A stretch of 64,000 nt of DNA. Origin: an uncultured Bacteroides sp. Its GTDB lineage: Bacteria > Bacteroidota > Bacteroidia > Bacteroidales > Muribaculaceae. How positions within the stretch are numbered: position 1 is the first letter of the stretch; each line of letters begins with the position of its first letter. A program made the translations under genes and the position numbers. The notes under the pieces are model-generated. The model did no database searches. It was not told the DNA's origin and worked only from the letters and a program-made list of their open reading frames with translations. Positions 19,155 through 46,550 of this stretch are shown here, one piece after another. The stretch covers positions 12,495-76,494 of the forward strand of contig CAYNHP010000001.1 of assembly GCA_964397235.1 (NCBI GenBank). Reading direction: 5' to 3'.

Positions 19155-19224
19155 GGGTTAATGTTTAAGGTTTAATGTTTAAGGTTTAATGGTTGAGGCT
19201 CCAGGTTTAATGTTTATGGTTTAA
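19155..19224. repeat. 7-bp tandem array (10 units, consensus KGTTTAA)
   Basis: gggttaa tgtttaa ggtttaa tgtttaa ggtttaa tggttga ggctcca ggtttaa tgtttat ggtttaa. Confidence 0.9.
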
Positions 19225-19276
19225 GGACTATAGCTCAATCCATTAATCTAACCTTGGTTTCGTTGGCGTAATTGAA

Positions 19277-21041: not shown

Positions 21042-21120
21042 GGTTTATGGGTTAAGGTTCAAAGTTTAGGGTTTAATGAGGTGAAACGTACTTTAAACAT
21101 TAAACTTTAAACATTAAACA
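21042..21120. repeat. Inverted pair of 7-bp arrays (5x GGTTTAA-like, 16-bp spacer, 4x TTAAACW)
   Basis: ggtttat gggttaa ggttcaa agtttag ggtttaa | tgaggtgaaacgtact | ttaaaca ttaaact ttaaaca ttaaaca. Confidence 0.85.
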
Positions 21121-37012: not shown

Positions 37013-37020
37013 TTCTTAAA

Positions 37021-37244
37021 TTCATAATTCATAATGCATAATTCATAATTCTTGCTGCGCAAGCGCCGGAGGCGATGACTTGCTTCGCAAGCGCCGGAGG
37101 CGATGACTTGCTTCGCAAGCGCCGGAGGCGATGACTTAGTGCATATTATATAATGTTTATTAATCTACTAATCTCTTAATCTCCTAATCTATTACTCTTT
37201 TAATCTCTAATCTCTAATATCTAATCTTCTAAACTCCAATCTCT
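37021..37244. repeat. Composite repeat: 4x TTCATAA, 3x 28-bp double-hairpin unit, ~11x TAATCTC(N)
   Basis: 7-mers at 37021-37051; CTTGCTKCGCAAGCGCCGGAGGCGATGA at 37051, 37079 and 37107; TAATCT-type 7/8-mers at 37161-37244. Confidence 0.92.
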
Positions 37245-37246
37245 CA

Positions 37247-38821
37247 TCAGAACGGTACTGAGCCGGTACCGGCTTGATTGAGAAAATCGTCGTTAGGGTT
37301 ATTGGCCGGGTTAAAGGCTTCCAGATCGGCAATCTTGGCAGGATCCGGGGGTATTGCACCCGCTCCATTGTCGCTGGAAGGACGCATGTTGAAGTCGGAT
37401 GCCGAGGTCTGGGAGTCGTCCCAGTTCTCGAAGCGGACATATTCGTGGCGGAATCGCATCTTGACGTCGCCGGTGGCGCCCGAGCGGTGTTTTGCGATTA
37501 TGAATTCCGCCAGGCCCTCCTGAACGTTACCGTCGGAGTCCTCTTTGCCGCGGGTATAGTACTCGGGGCGGTGGATGAAGCATACGATGTCGGCGTCCTG
37601 TTCGATGGCGCCCGACTCGCGGAGGTCGGAGAGCTGGGGGCGTTTGTCCTTATTGCCGCGGTCCTCGAGTTTTCGGTTGAGCTGCGACAGGGCGATGACA
37701 GGAATCGAAAGTTCGCGCGCCAACTGTTTGAGGTTACGCGAAATGGTGCTCACTTCCTGTTCGCGGGATCCCATCTGTACGCCGGCGGTCATGAGCTGGA
37801 GGTAGTCGATGATGATTAGTTTCACGCCGTGCTCGCGAACCAGACGTCTGGCCTTGGTGCGGAGTTCAAGCATCGAAAGGCTGGAGGTATCGTCGATAAA
37901 GAATGGTATGCCGTTGAGTTTTTGGAGGCGGTTGAACATCAGGCTATATTCCTGCGAGCTCAGCGAGCCGGAACGAATTTTGTTGCCGGGAACTTCGCAT
38001 GCGTTGGAAATCAAACGGTTGACCAACTGCACGCGACTCATTTCGAGGGAGAACACGGCCACGGGGTCGTTGTGAAGAGCTATATTGAGAGCCATTGACA
38101 GCACGAAGGCCGTCTTACCCATAGCCGGACGGGCGGCGATGATGATGAGGTCGGACTTCTGCCAGCCGGAAGTCACCTTGTCCAGTGCATGGAAGCCGGT
38201 TCCCAAGCCGCTGAGGCCGGAGTCCTGGCGGGTAGCGTTCTGCATCTGCTCTATGGCCATGGCGATGACGGGGTCGATCTGGACCACATCCTGCTTGAGG
38301 TTGCGCTGGGAGATATCGAAGAGGTTCTTTTCGGCTTCCTGGAGGAGGTCGTCGACGTCGTTGCTTTCGTCGAAGGCCCCTTCCTCCACGCGTGAGGCAA
38401 ATGTGATGAGTTGGCGTGCCAGGTGCTTCTGGGCCACGATTTTGGCGTGGAATTCTATGTGTGCGGCGGAGGCCACGTTTGCCGTGAGACCGGCCACGAA
38501 GGCCGGGCCGCCTATTTCCTCGAGCGTACCGTTGAGGCGCAGGCGGTTGGTGACGGTGATCATGTCGATTGGCTCCTGGGCGACACCGAGGCCGAGGATG
38601 GCTTCGTACACCCGTCGGTGCTTGGGCTCGTAGAATGAGTCGGGGGTCAGGAGCTCGTTCACCTGCATGAAGGCGTCCTTTTCGAGCATGAGTGCACCGA
38701 GCACAGCGGCTTCAACCTCCACCGCGCGAGGCACCAGGCGGCCGCCGGGAAGGTCGGCCGGCTGTTGGGTTTCGTTTTTGCGCGGATAGCGGTTATTGCG
38801 TGTCTGAGTGGGTGCGGGCAT
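37247..38821 (-). CDS. dnaB: Replicative DNA helicase
   Basis: AARPAMGKT, FSLEMS, IDYLQLM, ALSQLNR, DLRESGAIEQDAD, AKHRSG. Confidence 0.98.
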   Translation of the reverse strand: MPAPTQTRNNRYPRKNETQQPADLPGGRLVPRAVEVEAAVLGALMLEKDAFMQVNELLTPDSFYEPKHRRVYEAILGLGVAQEPIDMITVTNRLRLNGTLEEIGGPAFVAGLTANVASAAHIEFHAKIVAQKHLARQLITFASRVEEGAFDESNDVDDLLQEAEKNLFDISQRNLKQDVVQIDPVIAMAIEQMQNATRQDSGLSGLGTGFHALDKVTSGWQKSDLIIIAARPAMGKTAFVLSMALNIALHNDPVAVFSLEMSRVQLVNRLISNACEVPGNKIRSGSLSSQEYSLMFNRLQKLNGIPFFIDDTSSLSMLELRTKARRLVREHGVKLIIIDYLQLMTAGVQMGSREQEVSTISRNLKQLARELSIPVIALSQLNRKLEDRGNKDKRPQLSDLRESGAIEQDADIVCFIHRPEYYTRGKEDSDGNVQEGLAEFIIAKHRSGATGDVKMRFRHEYVRFENWDDSQTSASDFNMRPSSDNGAGAIPPDPAKIADLEAFNPANNPNDDFLNQAGTGSVPF

Positions 38822-42008: not shown

Positions 42009-42698
42009 ATGATAGACCTTCTCATACCGCTAAGCATCACCGACTACCTCAACGCGAGCTTTTTCTTTGACTGGTTCGTTCAGAACGCCAACTACTGGTT
42101 TGTGTTCATCTTCATGGTAGTTGAGAGTTCGTTCATACCCTTTCCGTCGGAGGTGGTAGTGCCACCGGCAGCCTACCTGGCTATGCAGAAGGGCGACATG
42201 AACATCTTCCTTGTAGTGCTGGTGGCAACCGCCGGCGCGCTCGTTGGTGCGACGATCAACTACCTGCTCTCACTGTGGGTGGGACGTCCGCTGGTCTACG
42301 CCTTCGCCAACTCGCGCCTGGGCCATGCCTGCCTGATTGACAAGGCCAAGGTTGAAAAGGCCGAACGCTACTTCGACGAGCACGGAGCCGCAAGCACATT
42401 CATCGGGCGCCTGATTCCGGCGGTGCGTCAGCTCATTTCCATTCCCGCCGGTATCGCCCGCATGAACTTCGGCATCTTTGCGCTCTTCACCGCCCTGGGC
42501 GCGCTGGTGTGGAACGCTATCCTTGCCCTGCTCGGATGGTGGCTGGCCCGGACTGTCAGCATCGGGCAGCTCTACGAGGCTGTGGAGAAGTACAACAGCT
42601 ATCTCACGATAGGCGGTATTGTCCTGCTGGTGCTCTGCATCGCTTATATTATTTACAACGCTTTTAAGCCTAAAACCGACTCCAAGACCAAACAATGA
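42009..42698 (+). CDS. DedA-family membrane protein
   Basis: ESSFIPFPSEVVVPPAAY, FIGRLIPAVRQLISIPAG. Confidence 0.95.
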   Translation: MIDLLIPLSITDYLNASFFFDWFVQNANYWFVFIFMVVESSFIPFPSEVVVPPAAYLAMQKGDMNIFLVVLVATAGALVGATINYLLSLWVGRPLVYAFANSRLGHACLIDKAKVEKAERYFDEHGAASTFIGRLIPAVRQLISIPAGIARMNFGIFALFTALGALVWNAILALLGWWLARTVSIGQLYEAVEKYNSYLTIGGIVLLVLCIAYIIYNAFKPKTDSKTKQ

Positions 42699-43345
42699 TA
42701 GTATCTCCCTCTCTGCTGAGCGCCGATTTCGGGTGCCTCAAAGATTCCCTCCGCATGCTCGACGAAAGTCGCGCCGACTGGCTCCACTGCGATGTGATGG
42801 ACGGCGTATTCGTGCCCAATATTTCCTTCGGTTTTCCCGTTATCGAAGCCGTGGCCAAGCTTAGTCCCAAGCCTCTTGACGTACACCTGATGATTGTTGA
42901 CCCGGACCGCTACATCGGCCGTGTCCGTGACCTCGGAGCTATGTTCATGAATGTCCACGCCGAAGCCTGTACCCATCTCCACCGTTCCATCCAGGCCATC
43001 AAGGCCGCAGGAATGAAGGCTGCCGTGACGCTGAATCCCGCCACTCCCGTGGTGATGCTGGAGGATGTCATCGCCGACCTGGACATGGTTCTGCTGATGA
43101 GTGTCAATCCCGGTTTCGGAGGCCAATCGTTCATCCCCGGTACGCTGGCCAAGATCCGCCGGCTGCGCGAACTCATCACAGTCAGCGGTTCGTCGGCACT
43201 GATTGAAGTTGACGGCGGCATCAATGCCACCACCGGTGCTCAATGTGCCCAGGCCGGAGCCAACGCCCTTGTGGCCGGCAGCGCAATCTTCAACGCGCCG
43301 AACCCCAAAGAAGTAATTGAAACTCTTTCAAGTTTAGCAAGCTAA
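42695..43345 (+). CDS. rpe: Ribulose-phosphate 3-epimerase
   Basis: SPSLLSADF, HCDVMDGVFVPNISFG, MSVNPGFGGQ, EVDGG. Confidence 0.97.
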   Translation: MIVSPSLLSADFGCLKDSLRMLDESRADWLHCDVMDGVFVPNISFGFPVIEAVAKLSPKPLDVHLMIVDPDRYIGRVRDLGAMFMNVHAEACTHLHRSIQAIKAAGMKAAVTLNPATPVVMLEDVIADLDMVLLMSVNPGFGGQSFIPGTLAKIRRLRELITVSGSSALIEVDGGINATTGAQCAQAGANALVAGSAIFNAPNPKEVIETLSSLAS

Positions 43346-43852
43346 ACTTGAAGTTTAGGGGTTTACAGGTTTATTGGTTTAAACTGAATATCGATTTTCT
43401 ATGGAAACAGAACTGTTCTCGTTTGAGAAATTGGAAGTTTATCAACTTTCGCGCAGGCTCATTAAAGATGTGTATGGCGTCATAGATCAACTTCCTCAAT
43501 GTGAAAAATTCGCTTTGGGTCAACAGCTTCAGAGATCTATTGTTTCTGTTGCTTCTAATATAGCAGAAGGTGGAGGGAGAATCTCCTATGATGATAAAAT
43601 CCGATTCATAGAGTTCTCTTATGGTTCTCTCTTGGAAGCCTACTGCCAGATGCAACTTTGTAATGACTTAGGCTATATTTCCGAAGATAGGTTTAAAGGG
43701 TTTAAGCCACAATTCTTTGCCATTTCAAAACTTTTGAAAGGACTTAAGCAAAGTTATTGGCTTAAGATTCAAAGTAAGTAAACTTTAAACCCAAACTTAC
43801 AATTAAACCTTTAAACACATAAACTAATAAACTTGAGTTGCGCTTGCGCAAC
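43327..43852 (+). mobile_element. Candidate four-helix-bundle cassette with inverted tandem-repeat arms
   Basis: Left 12-bp palindrome plus 4x GTTTA (period 8); right 4x TAAAC (period 8) plus a hairpin; AT-rich gene between rpe and ftsK. Confidence 0.55.
43401..43781 (+). CDS. Four helix bundle protein (23S rRNA IVS / Avd-like family)
   Basis: FSFEKLEVYQ, EKFALGQQLQRSIVSVASNIAEG, SYGSLLE. Confidence 0.93.
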   Translation: METELFSFEKLEVYQLSRRLIKDVYGVIDQLPQCEKFALGQQLQRSIVSVASNIAEGGGRISYDDKIRFIEFSYGSLLEAYCQMQLCNDLGYISEDRFKGFKPQFFAISKLLKGLKQSYWLKIQSK

Positions 43853-43865
43853 GAAAATATATCAC

Positions 43866-46550
43866 ATGGACGAAATTTTTACTGAACAAGAACCTGAAGT
43901 GGAAAGTTTCGGCGAGGAGCTGGACCGCCGCATGGCCGCCGAGGAACGGCGCCGTGGGGTGCGCCGTCAGCCCGAGGCCGAAGGTGACACGCCGCGCCAA
44001 CGACGCAAGCCTGTTCAGGACCCGACCGGTCCGTCGAACCACCGTCGCCGTCCGGCAAAAGCCAAGGAGCCGAAGTATACTTTCATCGACTTTCTGCGTG
44101 ACGAGCGATTCCACTACGGTGTCGGCATCTTCATATGCTTCGTGGCAATAGTCACGGCTGTGTGTGCCTTCTCATTTATATATAGCACGCATGCCGACCA
44201 AAGCCTGACCCTGAACAAGACAGTAGCTGAAGTGGCCGCAGCGGCAGCAGAATCCGGCGAGACCATCGAGAACACCGGTGGAGCCTTCGGCGCAAAGCTT
44301 GGGCAGTGGTTGATGGTGGACTCTTTCGGCATAGGATCATTCGTCTTCGCAATCTACCTCTTCCTGGTTGGATTGGCCATCATGAAGGTCAAACGAATTT
44401 CTTTCTGGACCTTGACATTCCGGTGCCTGTTCACCATGGTAGCCGGTTCGGTGATACTCGGTTTCTTCACTTACAACCGCGCGGCTTATTTCGACCTCGG
44501 GGGTAGTCACGGCAGATATGCCAACGAGCTTCTGCTTTACTACTCCGACTGGATCGGTGCCTTCGGAGTGAGCCTGTTGCTGTTAGGTCTGCTCATAGCC
44601 ACCTACTTCAAGCCGATTAAGTGGTTCTGCGTCAAGATGGGCGGTATGCTCCGCAGGCCTAAGACCCCGGAACCTGAAGAAGAGTCGGAAGAAACTACCG
44701 ATGAGGCTCAGGCAGCCTTTGAGGCTATGGCCGGTACAGGGACGGATGAAACGCAGGAGACTACGGGCGCGGAACAACCCGAAGAGACTCCTGTTGAGGC
44801 TGAAGAGCGGCCGGACTTCGTGGTTACCAATGAAGAGATGTCGGCTGCTCCCGACAGTACTCCTGTTGCGGAAACTTCCGACGACCCCGATGCGCTCATG
44901 ACGGAAATCATGCAGCCTACCACCGAGACAGTTATCCCCACCTCCGGAGGCGAGCTGGAGCTGGTCATCACAAACACAACCGAGCCCACATCTCCCGAAA
45001 CTCCCGCCGACGACGAGCCTGTAGAGATTCACGACGGCGACCACCTCGGCCTCGACACAGTCTTCGACCCCCGCGCAACCCATTCGCAGTACGTCAAGCC
45101 GACGCTGGACCTGCTTATCGACCGCCCCAAGGGCGTGGCCACGGATGAGGCCGAGCAGAAGGCCAACATCGACATGATTGTAAATGCTCTCCGCAGCTAT
45201 GGAATTGAAATCCAGCGCATTTCGGCGACTATCGGCCCGACCGTAACCCGCTACGAGATGGTTCCGGCCGAGGGTATCCGTATCGCCAAAATCCGCTCCC
45301 TTGAGGATGATATAGCCATGAACCTCGCGGCGCTCGGCATCCGAATCATCGCCCCGATTCCGGGTAAGAACGCCGTCGGCATCGAGGTGCCCAACCGTAA
45401 ACCTCAGGTAGTGTCCATGCGCGCCATCCTGGAGTCGGACACCTTCCGCAACAACAAGATGAACCTGCCCATGGCGCTCGGTTCGACCATCACCAACGAC
45501 GTGTTCATGGCCGACCTCTGCAAGATGCCCCACCTGCTGGTGGCCGGTGCTACGGGTCAGGGTAAATCCGTAGGCCTCAATGCCATCCTGACGTCGTTAC
45601 TCTACTACAAGCACCCCGATGAACTCAAGCTCGTGCTCATCGACCCCAAGATGGTAGAATTTTCCCTCTACGAAAGCATCGCCCCGCAGTTCATGGCCCG
45701 CTTGGTGGACGAGGATAAGAGTGTAATCACCGACCCCGACATAGCCCTGAAGACGCTGGCGTCGCTCTGCGAAGAGATGGAAAGCCGCTACCGCCTCCTC
45801 ACCGAGGCCAAGGTGCGCGTAATCGAGGACTACAACGAGCGCTTCATCCAGCGCCGCCTCAACCCCGAGAAAGGTCACCGCTACCTGCCTTACATCGTGG
45901 TGGTTGTCGACGAGTTTGCCGACTTGGTGCAGAGCGCCGGCAAGGAAATTTACGCCTATATTGCCAAAATCGTGGCAAAAGCCCGTGCCGTTGGTATCCA
46001 TATGATTCTGGCGACCCAGCGCCCGTCGACCGACGTTATCACCGGTGTGATAAAGTCCAACTTCCCGGCCCGTATCGCCTTCAAGGTTACTCAGAGCGTG
46101 GACTCCAAGACCATCCTCGACCGTCCGGGCGCTCAGCGTCTCATCGGCCGCGGCGACATGCTAATCCTCATCGGCGGCGCTATCGAACGCGTGCAGTGCG
46201 CCTTCGTTGACACCCCCGAAGTGGAAGCCATCTGTGGCCACATCGAGGCCCAGCCCGGATTTGACGAGCCTTACGAGCTGCCCGAACCACCCGCCGAAGG
46301 CGAAGGGGGTGGTGGTGGACCCGTGGACGCTTCCAAAATCAACGACGAGTTCAAAAAGGTGGCGGTTTTCACCGCATCCCAGCAGACAATTTCCATCACG
46401 CTGCTCCAGCGCCAGTTCGAAATCGGCTTCGGCAAAGCCGCGCGCTATGTGGACCAGATGGAGAAGCTCGGCATCGTCGGACCGGCCAACGGCGCCAAGC
46501 CACGCCAGGTGCGCATGACGCCCGACGAGGTAACCCGCATGCTCTCGTGA
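43866..46550 (+). CDS. ftsK: DNA translocase FtsK
   Basis: N-terminal 4 TM segments, PHLLVAGATGQGKS, IDPKMVE, DEFADL, ATQRPS, gamma domain. Confidence 0.97.
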   Translation: MDEIFTEQEPEVESFGEELDRRMAAEERRRGVRRQPEAEGDTPRQRRKPVQDPTGPSNHRRRPAKAKEPKYTFIDFLRDERFHYGVGIFICFVAIVTAVCAFSFIYSTHADQSLTLNKTVAEVAAAAAESGETIENTGGAFGAKLGQWLMVDSFGIGSFVFAIYLFLVGLAIMKVKRISFWTLTFRCLFTMVAGSVILGFFTYNRAAYFDLGGSHGRYANELLLYYSDWIGAFGVSLLLLGLLIATYFKPIKWFCVKMGGMLRRPKTPEPEEESEETTDEAQAAFEAMAGTGTDETQETTGAEQPEETPVEAEERPDFVVTNEEMSAAPDSTPVAETSDDPDALMTEIMQPTTETVIPTSGGELELVITNTTEPTSPETPADDEPVEIHDGDHLGLDTVFDPRATHSQYVKPTLDLLIDRPKGVATDEAEQKANIDMIVNALRSYGIEIQRISATIGPTVTRYEMVPAEGIRIAKIRSLEDDIAMNLAALGIRIIAPIPGKNAVGIEVPNRKPQVVSMRAILESDTFRNNKMNLPMALGSTITNDVFMADLCKMPHLLVAGATGQGKSVGLNAILTSLLYYKHPDELKLVLIDPKMVEFSLYESIAPQFMARLVDEDKSVITDPDIALKTLASLCEEMESRYRLLTEAKVRVIEDYNERFIQRRLNPEKGHRYLPYIVVVVDEFADLVQSAGKEIYAYIAKIVAKARAVGIHMILATQRPSTDVITGVIKSNFPARIAFKVTQSVDSKTILDRPGAQRLIGRGDMLILIGGAIERVQCAFVDTPEVEAICGHIEAQPGFDEPYELPEPPAEGEGGGGGPVDASKINDEFKKVAVFTASQQTISITLLQRQFEIGFGKAARYVDQMEKLGIVGPANGAKPRQVRMTPDEVTRMLS

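Follow-up and report, generated by a model that had tools for sequence, protein, structure and literature searches.

We report that a block of about 526 bp, at positions 43327-43852 of a 64,000-nucleotide stretch of DNA from an uncultured Bacteroides sp. of the Muribaculaceae (the whole stretch is called the window below; its source assembly measures 2.28 Mb and is 89% complete), carries a PF05635 (23S_rRNA_IVP) gene between two inverted arrays of short tandem repeats, which we call arms, and lies between rpe and ftsK. Comparison with related genomes indicates that gene and arms are one inserted unit in this lineage, and the same layout, judged from flanking sequence, is the rule for the relatives of this protein across phyla. 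The insert is an intervening sequence (IVS)-type cassette placed outside ribosomal RNA (rRNA), between two protein genes that run in the same direction. The explanation that we favor, tentatively and with a probability of roughly 0.45, is that it rides in the host transcript with its arms looping it out of the RNA, while exchange at the DNA level keeps the two arms matched.

The case for an insertion comes from congeneric genomes. In about 19 of them rpe adjoins ftsK, with a short spacer (about 15-80 nt between the stop codon of the one and the start codon of the other), and a PF05635 gene is present at none of these junctions; because these congeners have rpe-ftsK without the gene, the roughly 526 bp found here are read as inserted. 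In congeners a conserved Leu is the last residue encoded by rpe, two to five codons before the end of rpe here, whereas the gene in the window extends five codons past that residue and into a palindrome, which places the inserted block at about 43327-43852. A first-pass annotation, made by a model from the letters of the sequence, had proposed that gene and arms form a unit inserted between housekeeping genes, and had suggested comparing rpe-ftsK junctions for empty alleles. Such alleles were found in all of the about 19 congeners, which bears the proposal out.

The repeats and palindromes which that annotation listed were confirmed to the base when the sequence was read again. The left outer palindrome (TTCAAGTTTAGC-AA-GCTAAACTTGAA, 43327-43352) is perfect, with 12+12 nt that are 100% complementary, and consists of one GTTTA unit opposing one TAAAC unit; the last five codons of rpe (SSLAS) and its stop codon (43343-43345) lie within it and hence within inserted DNA. 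It is probably the left edge of the insert, and the right outer palindrome (GTTGCGC-TT-GCGCAAC, 7+7 nt, 43837-43852), a diverged mirror copy of the left one, is probably the right edge. According to the repeat finder the two are mutually 76% complementary (the right one against 43332-43348), and both form hairpins in the predicted RNA fold of 43320-43860; the right one was not scored as a terminator by our scan because it has no T-run. Between the palindromes, the G/T-rich 5' arm (43353-43381, plus strand) holds four GTTTA cores at period 8, starting at 43353, 43361, 43369 and 43377. The 3' arm (43779-43832, minus strand) starts at the stop codon of the PF05635 gene and reads TAAAC six times on the plus strand, at 43779, 43786, 43804, 43812, 43820 and 43828, the last four cores (43804-43832) having period 8 and mirroring the 5' arm. 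The repeat finder aligns 43351-43382 with 43803-43834 as an inverted pair of 32 nt and 75% complementarity. The four-core period-8 pattern, with at most one mismatch, has exactly two matches in the window, one per strand and flanking the gene, compared with none in 100 dinucleotide shuffles (0 expected). GC content is 0.32-0.39 across the insert (about 0.35) against 0.55-0.66 outside it, and that of the gene is about 0.36-0.37 against 0.56 for the genome. Of the neighbors, rpe (ribulose-phosphate 3-epimerase, 42695-43345, plus strand) matches Pfam PF00834 with E 9.5e-74, and ftsK (43866-46550, plus strand) has the Pfam FtsK_SpoIIIE, alpha, gamma and 4TM domains and a start codon at 43866 that matches congeners.

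The layout recurs well beyond this locus. We scored flanks by Smith-Waterman alignment of the upstream 150 nt with the reverse complement of the downstream 150 nt; in a control of 552 ordinary genes of this genome the median score was 15 and the 99th percentile 24. The 25 full-length congeneric loci, from more than 20 congeners, have a median of 44, and 19 of them lie above the control's 99th percentile. A score of at least 25 was reached by 60 of 79 loci from species genomes, as against 10 of 79 when the flanks were compared in direct orientation, and by 20 of 30 loci sampled across the phylum by Pfam score; about 1% of control genes reach it. The 79 loci span Bacteroidota, Verrucomicrobiota, Fibrobacterota, Ignavibacteriota and Melainabacteria, with Muribaculaceae, Prevotellaceae, Bacteroidaceae, Flavobacteriaceae, Chitinophagaceae and Opitutales among the groups represented. 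Note that the shares of 67-76% describe relatives of this protein or the top Pfam scorers in one phylum, and are not to be extended to the whole family. PF05635 copies on finished plasmids of Nostoc, Anabaena and Riemerella are armed likewise. The idea that paralogs of this four-helix-bundle gene would be enclosed by inverted arrays, which the first-pass annotation had put forward together with a 150-nt flank test, has thus passed that test strongly.

The repeated motif itself varies from locus to locus (GTGGAGA, GAGTAAT, GGTACGAG, GGTTAAA, GTAGGGA and others, with GGTGAAA, GGTTGGTG, AAGAATTA and AATTAGC among further congeneric loci), and cassettes that occupy one site in related species differ in motif. 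The second PF05635 gene of this genome (locus L001:1483-1869; contig C3:61969-62286, minus strand), which is 49% identical to the first, has AGAAGATT eight times upstream and the inverse motif downstream; its flanks sit on different contigs in congeners, where no empty site for this second cassette could be delimited. Two copies elsewhere occupy unusual places. On plasmid pNe_5 of Nostoc edaphicum (L134:689-1057), a cassette with GTAGGGA/TCCCTAC arms lies between the two ribonucleotide reductase subunit genes, on the strand opposite to both. One GC-rich PF05635 copy (L185, G198:C1:238002-241313; GC 0.57) seems to be embedded in a long, methyltransferase-like reading frame extending past it at either end, and recalls cassettes that are translated through within host genes.

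The gene in the insert (43401-43781, plus strand) encodes a 126-aa protein of the four-helix-bundle family PF05635/TIGR02436 that matches PF05635 over the full length of the profile (1-106 of 106) with E 1.9e-29 and 102.5 bits against a cut-off of 33.8. To our knowledge, the family has no catalytic site, and we know of no sequence-specific binding by this fold. Residues 8-104 match the solved pentameric four-helix bundle XCC0516 (PDB 2GSC) with E 1e-13. The family motif was published as GxxRxxxSxxxNxxE (PMC3936711); its R-x3-S-x3-N-x2-E part is present here, with R45, S49, N53 and E56 invariant in an alignment of relatives, and in this protein the leading G departs from the published spacing. 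The protein in these cassettes is under purifying selection, with dN/dS of 0.04-0.14 among orthologous cassettes at the same site. Of 121 Bacteroidota genomes sampled, 91 have PF05635 genes, the largest number per genome being 13, and the nearest homologue of the protein studied here is 58-60% identical to it. It is barely conceivable that the gene is an Avd left behind by a diversity-generating retroelement (DGR). The homology of the family with Avd is accepted (PMC10053308), and a weak bAvd match (PF22296, E 1.8e-4) is consistent with it; however, that match scores 22.4 against a cut-off of 40, reverse transcriptase (PF00078) was not found in the 89% complete assembly, and there is no template/variable repeat pair nearby.

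We suggest the following course for the IVS-type cassette. It would be transcribed within a host transcript, rpe-IVP-ftsK, in whose RNA the two arms would pair, so that a closing stem loops the insert out in the way the stem of an IVS does in pre-rRNA. Looping out may limit harm to the host operon and frame the expression of the cassette gene. The stem would be cut where RNase III exists and would probably stay uncut in this genus. The arms, in turn, might be drawn from and exchanged with the genome's own 7-8-nt arrays, and conversion or recombination between the inverted arms in the DNA could keep them complementary and occasionally flip the cassette.

Several lines of evidence bear on the RNA part of this proposal. 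After syntenic loci were collapsed, both neighbors are co-directional with the cassette at 48 independent sites, both are opposite at two, and they are convergent or divergent at seven. The Bacteroidota -7 box TAnnTTTG lies upstream in 17 of 102 loci, where seven are expected, and most cassettes lack a recognizable promoter; the cassette in the window has neither TAnnTTTG nor a sigma-70-like site, and the terminator scan of it was likewise empty. A search of Rfam at the locus gave two sub-threshold chance matches and none at the gathering score. In the predicted fold of 43320-43860, a 16-bp arm-to-arm stem closes the insert both in the minimum free energy structure and in the centroid, its 5' half (43366-43381, plus strand) pairing with its 3' half (43820-43835, plus strand), which the inverted-repeat search finds as an 88% complementary pair; z is -5.4, and none of 100 shuffles is equally stable. 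The prediction therefore sides with the first-pass annotation, which had imagined the arms pairing into an RNA stem. Furthermore, orthologous pairs agree at 92-99% of positions in the paired core of the arms in seven cases out of eight and at 75% in the other, compared with 63-84% at the fourfold-degenerate sites of the open reading frame (ORF), which indicates purifying selection on that core; outside it the arrays change fast, by indels of units and blocks. Taken together, the orientation bias, the scarcity of promoters, the stem and the conservation of parts suggest co-transcription, with the insert looped out by a stem.

Other observations weigh against this proposal. Over most of their length the arms in the window match only in their 5-nt cores (75%), and the predicted closing stem, at 16 bp, is short. 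A search for RNase III (TIGR02191, PF14622, PF00636) was negative for this genome, for 24-25 congeners, of which many are 99% complete or better, and for two further Muribaculaceae, so that the only outcome proven for the stem of an IVS is unavailable here. Of 16 other families in the order, 14 have the enzyme, and it is present in two other carriers; Prevotellamassilia timonensis Marseille-P2831, the carrier of locus L095, has it. The IVS-style cleavage at the arms that had been envisaged at first cannot rely on this enzyme, and loss of rnc throughout a clade would deserve notice on its own account. Finally, mismatches between arms are divided into 73 of G-U type and 71 of A-C type, or 28 and 28 when oriented by the host transcript. 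Such an absence of wobble bias is predicted by maintenance at the DNA level, and not by selection on one RNA strand, although the arms are homogenized so quickly that the count does not settle the choice between the two.

Exchange between arms in the DNA has support of its own. Two loci (L079 and L081) have identical ORFs and arms that differ by indels, and cassettes at the same site have been found in opposite orientation (L031 against L037, and L033 against L029, L030, L032 and L101); both kinds of observation support DNA-level exchange. The last five of these loci share a single spacer, from the 3' end of a short-chain dehydrogenase gene to the start of the next gene, that is filled in four congeners and in a Duncaniella, with varying arm motifs and one cassette inverted. 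The arm motif also tracks the protein clade across at least seven different sites, as judged from a quick tree in which 55 of 97 inner branches were unresolved and from its supported groups only. Over long time scales, then, gene and arms travel together. In addition, the arms have a polarity: read inward from either side they are G/T-rich (G:C = 762:235 over 72 loci), and so are the gene-less inverted array pairs that exist in this genome. Convergent repeat pairs in Xanthomonas appear to share it (PMC4692102).

It would be tempting to go further and to see in the insert a mobile cassette without transposase, for which the inverted arrays are substrates of insertion, inversion and loss, either through hairpin formation or through homologous recombination with gene-less inverted pairs as landing pads. 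The first-pass annotation had likewise spoken of a mobile element. Filled and empty alleles among species, the patchiness of the family (26 of 61 congeners, with 0-7 copies each), related cassettes of the same arm type at the seven or more sites, both orientations at one site, gene-less pairs of the same polarity, strand-symmetric mismatches and the AT-richness of the insert would all be in keeping with this reading. We nevertheless regard it as unlikely. No direct repeat marks the edges of the insert as a target-site duplication would, no cassette recurred near-identically in a second context, no enzyme was seen, and nothing points to recent movement; the marks of a transposon or of a miniature inverted-repeat transposable element, namely target-site duplication and near-identical copies at several sites, are thus missing. 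The second copy in the genome has different arms, close cassette pairs always share flanks, and the identity of the closest homologue is no higher than given above. Cassettes are inherited vertically, keeping one site through dS of 0.2-1.8 under purifying selection, and the label of a mobile element is not supported. Also, the empty rpe-ftsK sites of the about 19 congeners showed no array, the 57 kb of those loci containing only a single marginal one, and most arrays of this genome are solitary. The two main alternatives to the IVS-type cassette, this one and a pairing of protein and repeat that is discussed below, are not mutually exclusive.

The arms belong to a much larger set of repeats. 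In this genome we found 227 AT-rich arrays of period 7 or 8, of which 208 are intergenic, while three lie within genes and 16 at the ends of contigs. Spacers between co-directional genes are favored, about 26% of those of at least 50 nt being occupied. The array pattern has 122 matches against one for its reversed control, and tandem 7-8-nt units are near-confined to intergenic DNA, far above chance. The arrays form a few motif families and are mostly solitary rather than paired. GTTTA accounts for 61 arrays and AGATTA for 37, and the two cassettes of this genome carry exactly these motifs; ATTATGC, AGGCTTT and TTGACAA are further abundant families. Given 227 similar arrays, the arms are best seen as members of a genome-wide population, and are not private to the element. 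The window holds others of the 227: GTTTAAx and its mirror at 19158-19226 and 21093-21120, which flank a native GC-rich gene, and (TTCATAA)n with (TAATCTC)n at 37019-37248, downstream of dnaB. Outside the window, a dispersed GC-rich core that begins with CCTCAYTGCGTTCGGSCAC occurs at C7:534, C7:3967, C9:36723, C9:46286, C26:4683, C52:15226 and C102:72; it directly follows a G-rich array at six of the seven sites, and at three it lies between inverted GTTTA/TAAAC arrays, forming a gene-less, hairpin-like unit.

In a genome so rich in intergenic repeats, the arms might be thought ordinary microsatellites that happen to stand beside a foreign gene. The density of arrays in co-directional spacers speaks for such a coincidence, which is nonetheless very improbable: a flank score seen in about 1% of control genes is reached by 76% of PF05635 loci, the layout persists in other phyla and where GTTTA arrays are not spread over the genome, and arm sequence is better conserved than fourfold-degenerate sites. 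The comparison with control genes refutes it.

More can be said for a cognate relationship, in which a PF05635 pentamer would bind 7-8-nt arrays of its own motif, as single-stranded DNA, RNA or double-stranded DNA, and the flanking arms would simply be the gene's own sites, as with Ssn nucleases and NTS repeats. The scattered arrays of each genome share the motif of its cassette arms. Besides GTTTA and AGATTA here, scattered GTGGAGA arrays are confined to G006 and G075, both of which have cassettes with GTGGAGA arms, and scattered GAGTAAT arrays to G064, where cassette arms are made of GAGTAAT; for the latter motif we compared genomes, the reversed motif being a rotation of the same repeat and hence an invalid control. 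GTTTA arrays, for their part, are abundant in nine of 61 congeners and near zero in the others. The tracking of protein clade by arm motif, the purifying selection on the protein and a published precedent of a gene flanked by repeats that it binds (PMC11893778) also favor this idea. Against it, the ATTATGC, AGGCTTT and TTGACAA families are abundant in a genome with only two PF05635 genes, congener G004 has GTTTA arrays and no PF05635 gene that we could find, though it is 88% complete, and cassettes at the same site in related species differ in motif. Moreover, binding alone would leave the inverted arrangement of the arms unaccounted for, and is not of a kind that we know for this fold. We therefore consider a cognate system possible but doubtful.

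Orphan family though it is, PF05635 is very common, and it is homologous to the Avd protein of DGRs; if its gene always travels with inverted short-repeat arms, this would offer a common and testable handle on two old puzzles, the nature of rRNA intervening sequences and the abundance of heptanucleotide repeats in some bacteria. It also calls for caution in taking PF05635 genes as functional partners of host operons, for example in cas loci. A bolder thought, which we deem quite unlikely, is that PF05635 proteins are the trans-acting partner of bacterial heptanucleotide repeats, each recognizing arrays of its own motif and helping to maintain or spread them, as a selfish repeat-and-gene system. 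In that event rRNA intervening sequences, operon cassettes and the puzzling heptamer arrays between genes in Bacteroidota, cyanobacteria and Xanthomonas would be three faces of one system. The literature that we searched ties PF05635 to rRNA intervening sequences, Avd and cas loci and describes no repeat arms outside rRNA, nor does what we searched on intergenic heptamer repeats draw a link to PF05635.

Among known systems, the relation to Avd of DGRs extends to a homologous four-helix-bundle fold, with a relative, XCC0516, that is pentameric; unlike a DGR, this locus has no reverse transcriptase and no template or variable repeats, and its bAvd score falls below the cut-off. Ssn is a GIY-YIG nuclease with proven cleavage of single-stranded DNA at the NTS/SRM repeat that it binds (PMC11893778). 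It resembles the cassette in being a small gene with a repeat on both sides and the same repeat scattered over the genome, as the GTTTA arrays are here (an arrangement of the Ssn/NTS or REP/RAYT type), and differs in that Ssn is a nuclease, while repeat binding by PF05635 is, by analogy, only a candidate activity. Intergenic heptanucleotide repeats have been described as GGGAATC in Xanthomonas, with 70-75 convergent (inverted) repeat pairs, and GGGGAYT in Nostoc (PMC4692102), and as TAACTGA in Beggiatoaceae, cyanobacteria and Bacteroidetes (PMC4679880). They share with the arrays described here short tandem units of 7-8 nt, a nearly exclusive intergenic location that is commonest between co-directional genes, and a patchy distribution; those papers made no link to PF05635, whereas here arrays enclose a PF05635 gene and scattered arrays share its motif. 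Genes annotated 23S_rRNA_IVP inside cas operons have been read as CRISPR-associated (PMC3936711), and they too are members of this family wedged between co-directional genes. Copies between cas6 and cas4 on plasmids of Pseudanabaena (L135:692-1051) and Anabaena sp. 90 (L141:716-1084) are flanked by heptamer arrays, direct in the former and inverted in the latter; because of these arrays, the published genes may be insertions of the kind described here.

The closest parallel is the IVS of 23S rRNA itself, whose ORF-bearing form was treated by Ralph and McClelland in 1993, as cited in PMC4990558. Such sequences, with the ORF S23p, are found in Coxiella burnetii and Leptospira; that of Coxiella has a 28-bp terminal stem within which RNase III cleaves, tandem GACAGAT heptamers in variable number before the ORF, and an ORF reported as decaying (PMC4990558). 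In our own set, a PF05635 gene on an Azospirillum plasmid (L138) lies inside the large-subunit (23S) rRNA gene, its arms are inverted heptamer arrays, and by sequence the locus is a classical IVS. The differences from these elements concern site and fate: the cassette in the window lies between two protein genes and the rRNA ones in helix 45 or 25, the latter are excised by an RNase III that was not found in this genus, and the relatives' protein here is under purifying selection while the Coxiella ORF decays. The likenesses concern build. Both have the same protein family in the loop, terminal inverted repeats able to close a stem, tandem heptamers in the arms (Coxiella, Azospirillum) or, here, period-8 GTTTA units, a sense direction within the host transcription unit, and a size of about 430-530 nt. 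The resemblance to an intervening sequence that was noted at the outset has therefore been strengthened, as a 23S rRNA IVS has the same heptamer-array arms, and the shared build in Azospirillum and Coxiella indicates that this cassette and the ORF-bearing rRNA IVS are one kind of element at two kinds of site.

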